64,000 nt of DNA from Candidatus Heimdallarchaeota archaeon (GTDB lineage Archaea; Asgardarchaeota; Heimdallarchaeia; Heimdallarchaeales; Heimdallarchaeaceae), in contig JAUVXV010000003.1 of the NCBI GenBank assembly GCA_030603365.1, forward strand, positions 64,001 through 128,000, read 5' to 3'. The notes beneath the pieces are model-generated. The model made no database searches, was not told the DNA's origin, and saw nothing but the letters and a program-made list of their open reading frames with translations. Positions 7,399-7,475 of this stretch are shown here, one piece after another. Position 1 is the stretch's first letter. Every line of letters starts with the position of its first letter. The translations under genes were made by a program, and so were the position numbers.

Positions 7399-7475
7399 AG
7401 CTCCATAGTCTAGTGGCCAATGATACAGGGATATTTATCACTGTGGCGGATGTTCGAATCATCTTGGAGCTACCA
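7399..7475 (+). tRNA. tRNA-Gln-like gene with non-canonical anticodon arm (pseudo-tRNA or non-decoding tRNA mimic)
   Basis: Acceptor AGCTCCA/TGGAGCT, D-loop AGTGGCCAA, T-arm GGATG-TTCGAAT-CATCT, A73-CCA. Anticodon arm CAGGG-ATATTTAT-CACTG has an 8-nt loop and no assignable anticodon. Confidence 0.8.

Follow-up and report, generated by a model that had tools for sequence, protein, structure and literature searches.

A third tRNA-Gln gene with a free anticodon in Heimdallarchaeota, a candidate off-ribosome partner of a divergent GatDE amidotransferase

Introduction

The window analyzed here, a 64,000-nucleotide stretch of a Candidatus Heimdallarchaeota contig, carries the full set of tRNA-Gln genes for decoding (UUG and CUG) and, a few kilobases downstream, a third tRNA-Gln-like gene without a usable anticodon. 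The decoding set accompanies the odd copy in all sufficiently sequenced genomes of clade A, which comprises the host genome, G016, G020, G023 and one metagenome contig (tree support 1.0, FastTree). The locus thus raises the question of what maintains a tRNA gene that appears unable to decode. No description of such a gene was found in a literature search that covered few subscription papers, and a preprint on Asgard tRNA introns does not mention Gln.

Results

Structure and detection of the third gene

The structural features listed in the initial annotation are all present in the sequence. The gene is 77 nt long, the acceptor stem has 7/7 pairs including A1-U72 and G2-C71, A73-CCA is encoded, and G18G19, a UUCGAAU T-loop and a 4-nt variable loop complete the body. 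The gene also has a wobble pair at G49.U65, U13.U22 and a mismatch between G30 and A40; its GC content is lower (0.45), and a folding z-score of -0.76 is uninformative. The anticodon arm proved to be 18 nt long as claimed, with an 8-nt loop (7431-7438, AUAUUUAU), and the zipped pairing proposed for it is the minimum free energy fold of the arm. ARAGORN reports tRNA-???. The covariance model check that had been suggested gave 39.7 bits for RF00005 in a local scan (E 9e-8; cut-off 29 bits), where the two true tRNA-Gln genes score about 60 bits; a scan of the whole window with the same model missed the gene. The gene is single-copy in the host genome. Upstream, a TATA-like box (7365-7372) ends 27 nt ahead of base 1, and the element to which it belongs probably acts as an archaeal promoter (Table 1).

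Table 1 Coordinates of the features discussed (window positions unless a locus is named)
Feature	Position	Strand	Remarks
Bacterial-type GlnRS, direct route to Gln-tRNA	1165..3090	+	TIGR00440, 688 bits, cut-off 426
Decoding tRNA-Gln(UUG)	3160..3235	+	D-loop enlarged
Decoding tRNA-Gln(CUG)	4093..4167	+	Now the CAG decoder in clade A and sisters
Zn-finger-like ORF, 67 aa	7109..7312	+	Marker of the syntenic ancestral tRNA-Gln(CUG) position
BRE/TATA-like element, conserved	7354..7373	+	Eight-orthologue alignment; putative promoter
tRNA-Gln(CUG)-derived gene, non-decoding	7399..7475	+	77 nt; A1-U72, A73, encoded CCA, A51-U63
Anticodon arm	7426..7443	+	18 nt; stem under selection, loop free
T-rich tract, likely terminator	7476..7489	+	T-rich in every orthologue, not alignable
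gatE2-gatD2 operon, only GatDE found in the host genome	L122:8781-12122 (G000 C5:48780-52121)

An open reading frame at 7420-9135 that starts within the tRNA is taken as a mechanical artefact, a start at 7537 being likelier. From there to 10872, between the tRNA and a RIO kinase gene, lie two tandem arylsulfotransferase-like membrane genes that are 81% identical to each other and were seen in the host genome only. Despite this insertion, no att-type repeat of the tRNA 3' end was found, and the gene is not regarded as the remnant of an integration site.

Origin from tRNA-Gln(CUG)

The Zn-finger-like ORF ahead of the odd gene is present in 27 of the 31 family genomes. At the same spot after it, seven genus members and a second genus have a normal tRNA-Gln(CUG), where clade A has the odd tRNA and a separate CUG copy beside a nucleoside-deoxyribosyltransferase-like gene (at 4093 in the window). 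The odd gene is therefore the old CUG copy, descended from the tRNA-Gln(CUG) of the same locus, and decoding has moved to the other one. A recent arrival of GlnRS is rejected as the trigger. TIGR00440 scores above its cut-off in 41 of the 83 genomes of the class, so that the acquisition of GlnRS is older than the event in clade A. The distribution of GlnRS follows that of glutamine synthetase (both were not found in most of families f3 and f4), and the GlnRS of the window has an archaeal GluRS-like N-terminus. In the interval between the Zn-finger gene and the RIO kinase, most genus members also have a conserved motif in which a strong ribosome-binding site precedes a very short ORF, itself located ahead of the kinase (for example, in the L081:4412 and L079:2200-2400 regions); the corresponding place in the window does not have this motif.

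The body is under selection while the anticodon drifts

Five orthologues entered the divergence test and three further variants brought the set to eight. Between pairs of the five, the 59-nt body has 3-7 differences, a divergence of 5-12%. At fourfold-degenerate positions in four genes nearby, the figure is 41-59% (P at most 2e-8 by a binomial test in each of 10 pairs, which are not independent of one another). In the stems, 98% of cells are paired. With the ancestral CUG copy added to the comparison, five pairs show two-sided changes, and pair 30-40 alone is found as A-U, U-A, U-G and G-C. The T-loop, G18G19, CCA and the upstream motif are unchanged. A redundant tRNA-Gln(CUG) in slow decay since the copy at 4093 took over would account for the redundancy, for the loss of the same-locus copy in sister clades and for the low GC content and G30.A40 mismatch of the host copy, but it leaves the conserved body and the compensatory changes unexplained. 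We consider decay improbable and largely refuted by these comparisons.

The loop follows a different pattern. Six of the eight orthologues have 7-nt loops, all different (AU-GAU-CU, AU-UUA-UU, AU-GUU-CU, AG-CUU-CU, AG-AUU-CU and AA-ACU-CU), and two, the window gene and L310, have 8-nt loops of unlike sequence. The 7-nt loop of a decoding tRNA-Gln, with Y32, U33, YUG and R37, is found in none of the eight, and since no orthologue has YUG at all, the non-decoding conclusion does not depend on the eighth loop base of the window gene, which is seen in the assembly only. Base 34 differs between the contigs L308 and L309, which share the adjacent protein. In clade A, A32 and U38 are fixed and able to pair, which closes the loop. 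The six 7-nt loops all have a pyrimidine at position 37 (a position that is ambiguous in the 8-nt ones), and four orthologues have YUC, a shifted Glu anticodon, at 35-37, which may be the ancestral state. Within the body, pair 51-63 has changed from G-C to A-U: A51-U63 is present in 8/8 orthologues, and G51-C63 in 14/14 decoding tRNA-Gln genes of the family that were checked.

With a conserved body and a freely drifting anticodon, the gene cannot read the genetic code. Single orthologues are auto-annotated as tRNA-Asn, -Ile or -Lys, but it is very improbable that the gene decodes for another amino acid or is repaired by editing or splicing: the anticodons disagree among orthologues, position 37 is a pyrimidine, and an intron would not fit into genes of 76-77 nt. 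A substitute for tRNA-Asn is likewise rejected, as an AsnRS and a separate tRNA with a GUU anticodon (C14:144164, intron-bearing in our reading) exist. Suppressor tRNAs of the SufD/SufA type, which shift the frame by +1, have an 8-nt anticodon loop, as do the window gene and L310. The frameshift-type tRNA that the initial annotation offered as one option, and with it four-base decoding, is nevertheless the least credible reading, because neither loop length nor loop sequence is conserved, U33 is not kept and no anticodon is common to the orthologues. Taken together, these comparisons lead us to reject decay and frameshifting, and the gene is, with high confidence, a real, selected, non-decoding tRNA-Gln paralogue. 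The original suggestion of selection rather than random decay is in this respect borne out, including by the covariation that was proposed as a check.

Odd tRNA-Gln copies recur in genomes with a divergent GatE

In sister clade B (seven genomes), the 7399-type copy has been lost and another odd tRNA-Gln lies between the UUG gene and an SDR gene. It has a 6-nt loop and A51-U63 and is under selection. Both clades therefore have one odd copy in addition to UUG and CUG, but the two odd copies differ in source. Further odd copies are found in G026 (5-nt loop, A1.A72 mismatch), in G003 (closed UUG loop, A1.A72), in six genomes of family f5 (a 6-nt loop, or CUA with U37 if spliced at 37/38, the splicing being our own reading) and in family f6, where the arm of the third UUG copy has drifted, with C33 in four genomes and A51-U63 in four copies. 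Families f3 and f4, in which no GlnRS was found, showed none among the top matches read.

All clearly odd copies found are in genomes with a GatE2-type gene, and the extra copies in f5 genomes with canonical GatE keep YUG and G37; the relatives compared are not independent. Eleven family genomes with GatE2-type matches, including the single-contig G027 and G030, have only two tRNA-Gln genes (five checked by model and pattern, the rest by model alone), so the odd RNA is not obligatory. That an odd copy is kept as the sole one with a GatDE-type D-loop partly fits clades A and B and G003 and fails in G026.

The divergent GatDE2 and third tRNA-Gln genes upstream of gatE2 in Thermoplasmata-like genomes

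The host genome has GlnRS, GluRS, AspRS, AsnRS and GatDE; no GatB was found in it. Its GatE scores 382 bits on the family model, compared with 530-650, and has an insertion domain and tail unlike those of the canonical enzyme. GatE2 and GatD2 each form one clade (100/100) apart from canonical enzymes, reaching into Thermoplasmata, Loki and Odin, with catalytic motifs intact. A lokiarchaeal locus (L317:475-10656) has canonical gatDE and gatDE2 back to back, with genes for an Asp/Asn-type synthetase and for a free asparaginase next to them. A gene of the glutamine synthetase family is present in 31/31 family genomes. A need to make Gln on tRNA is therefore not apparent, and the lack of this enzyme is rejected as a reason for the odd tRNA.

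Canonical GatDE recognizes its tRNA through contacts with the acceptor stem, the D-loop and the T-arm and does not read the anticodon (PMC2330236). By these rules, which come from the canonical enzyme and not from GatDE2, the odd gene has the features of a substrate: A1-U72, no extra D-loop bases, an intact T-arm and a 4-nt variable loop. What GatDE reads, and what it does not, is the same pattern as the conservation in the odd tRNA.

The genomic link comes from elsewhere. Within one Thermoplasmata-like order (so named because two of its GatE2 proteins are labelled that way), seven genomes have a third tRNA-Gln ahead of gatE2 and in the same orientation (7/7 loci), about 25-55 nt away in six and 1.8 kb in one; at canonical gatE loci the count is 0/5. 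These third genes have an A1.A72 mismatch and an abnormal loop, with C33 together with C37 in four, and GlnRS was found in three of the seven genomes, which are incomplete. In the host, gatDE2 is on another contig than the odd tRNA, and the nearest tRNA is a tRNA-His 1.3 kb upstream (adjacent in G027). The link with GatDE2 is therefore borrowed from Thermoplasmata. The copies there keep a YUG triplet and clade A does not, so that the roles may differ.

Among the roles first suggested for the gene were a decoy, an amino-acid donor and a regulator. The data most favour a partner of the divergent GatDE, a role that was not on that list. A selected tRNA-shaped RNA serving some other partner, either uncharged as a decoy or regulator (of nucleases, modification enzymes or GlnRS) or as donor for another transferase, is a less likely but tenable alternative. 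The selection evidence fits it equally, gatDE2 is unlinked in the host genome with glnS only 4.3 kb from the odd gene, and mascRNA, whose anticodon loop is not conserved, binds GlnRS while uncharged (PMC9976931). It leaves unexplained, however, the adjacency to gatE2 in all Thermoplasmata loci and the restriction to genomes with GatDE2. An anticodon-nuclease decoy should moreover retain its anticodon, and a donor of Glu-tRNA for heme (tetrapyrrole) synthesis is rejected, HemA (GluTR, PF05201) not having been found in 5/5 genomes of 88-93% completeness.

Discussion

Charging of an RNA without an anticodon

E. coli GlnRS needs U35 and G36 (PMC9976931); both are absent here, which makes charging of the odd tRNA by GlnRS unlikely. 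In GluRS (PDB 3AII), Arg403 reads U35 (PMC2978374). The equivalent residue is His in the host genome and most of the family and Arg in G027, G030, f5, f6 and Thermoplasmata. His goes with a wholly free anticodon, and Arg with odd tRNAs that mostly retain U35. The substitution, a single event that is also seen in genomes without an odd tRNA, would ease the charging of an anticodon-free RNA. The host GluRS (L150:2890-4632, G000 C16) also has HIGQ in place of HIGH, as do those of most of the family.

Likeness to known systems

A close parallel is the staphylococcal non-proteinogenic tRNA-Gly(UCC), the donor for FemXAB, in which pyrimidine 37 and A51-U63, a weak elongation-factor pair, are also found in an extra isoacceptor paralogue (PMC6103715, PMC4052509). 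These rules may hold for aEF1A as well. The staphylococcal tRNA keeps its anticodon and loses G18G19, whereas the odd tRNA loses its anticodon and keeps the elbow; it is also archaeal and Gln-derived, and a Fem-type acceptor was not identified. The tRNA-Gln of M. thermautotrophicus (ND-GluRS/GatDE route; PDB 2D6F, 3AII) has the same A1-U72, A73, 4-nt variable loop, canonical D-loop and T-arm, and GluRS and GatDE are present in the host too. The differences are the lack of a YUG anticodon, a GlnRS in the same genome and a GatDE from a paralogous clade. The MALAT1-derived mascRNA likewise has a tRNA fold and a tie to the Gln system through GlnRS (PMC9976931), but it is mammalian, cut from a long RNA and uncharged, where the odd tRNA is a free-standing, full-length gene paralogue.

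Proposed role

With modest confidence, and on sequence evidence, we favour a role as the dedicated off-ribosome RNA partner of GatDE2, for which a tRNA-Gln paralogue freed from decoding would have been kept. The odd RNA would be transcribed and processed as a tRNA, would avoid the ribosome and aEF1A through its closed loop, pyrimidine 37 and A51-U63, and GlnRS through the lack of U35 and G36, and would bind GatE2 by its acceptor stem and elbow. Most likely the resident GluRS would glutamylate it, amidation would follow off the ribosome, and the RNA would serve amide-nitrogen or glutamine metabolism as a carrier; in a lesser variant, it would be bound uncharged. More tentatively, and short of even confidence, Asgard archaea and Thermoplasmata may have in common an off-ribosome tRNA-dependent pathway in which a GatDE paralogue, once translation had passed to GlnRS, came to work with a non-decoding tRNA-Gln carrier of its own. 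Spare copies would have been the repeated source of this carrier, its anticodon would be read little or not at all in charging, and its glutamate would be amidated for a non-translational end.

Reviews describe archaea as lacking GlnRS, and GatDE as acting only to make Gln-tRNA for translation (PMC9499178). The archaea studied here, which are close relatives of eukaryotes, combine a GlnRS with a paralogous GatDE and a non-decoding tRNA. If the pairing is true, it provides a candidate substrate for GatDE2, adds an archaeal member to the non-proteinogenic tRNAs and shows a possible fate of the indirect route once GlnRS arrives. The gene has the marks of a non-proteinogenic tRNA, and the pathway would be new if charging and amidation hold.

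Consequences for annotation

Automatic annotation labels odd genes of this kind as Ile, Asn, Lys, stop or Pyl tRNAs, and inferences on the genetic code can be misled by such labels. The f5 tRNA-Gln-like genes (L242:233-341, L241, L243, L233 and L223), which splice to CUA (amber) with U37, are often called tRNA-Pyl. Introns of ~30 nt in the T-loop of tRNA-Gln genes (L085:3708, L086:6745 and 7874, L091:3962, L093:882, L099:3657 and L100:3128) vary in presence between close relatives, and ARAGORN misses such genes. A tRNA-Gln(UUG) of G003 (L131:952-1057) is identical to the f6 version and lies on a 5-kb contig, probably through contamination of the bin. The host genome has a second degenerate tRNA-like gene (G000 C1, L126:3928-4004, minus strand), with encoded CCA, a short variable arm and poor stems, which ARAGORN calls Leu(CAG).
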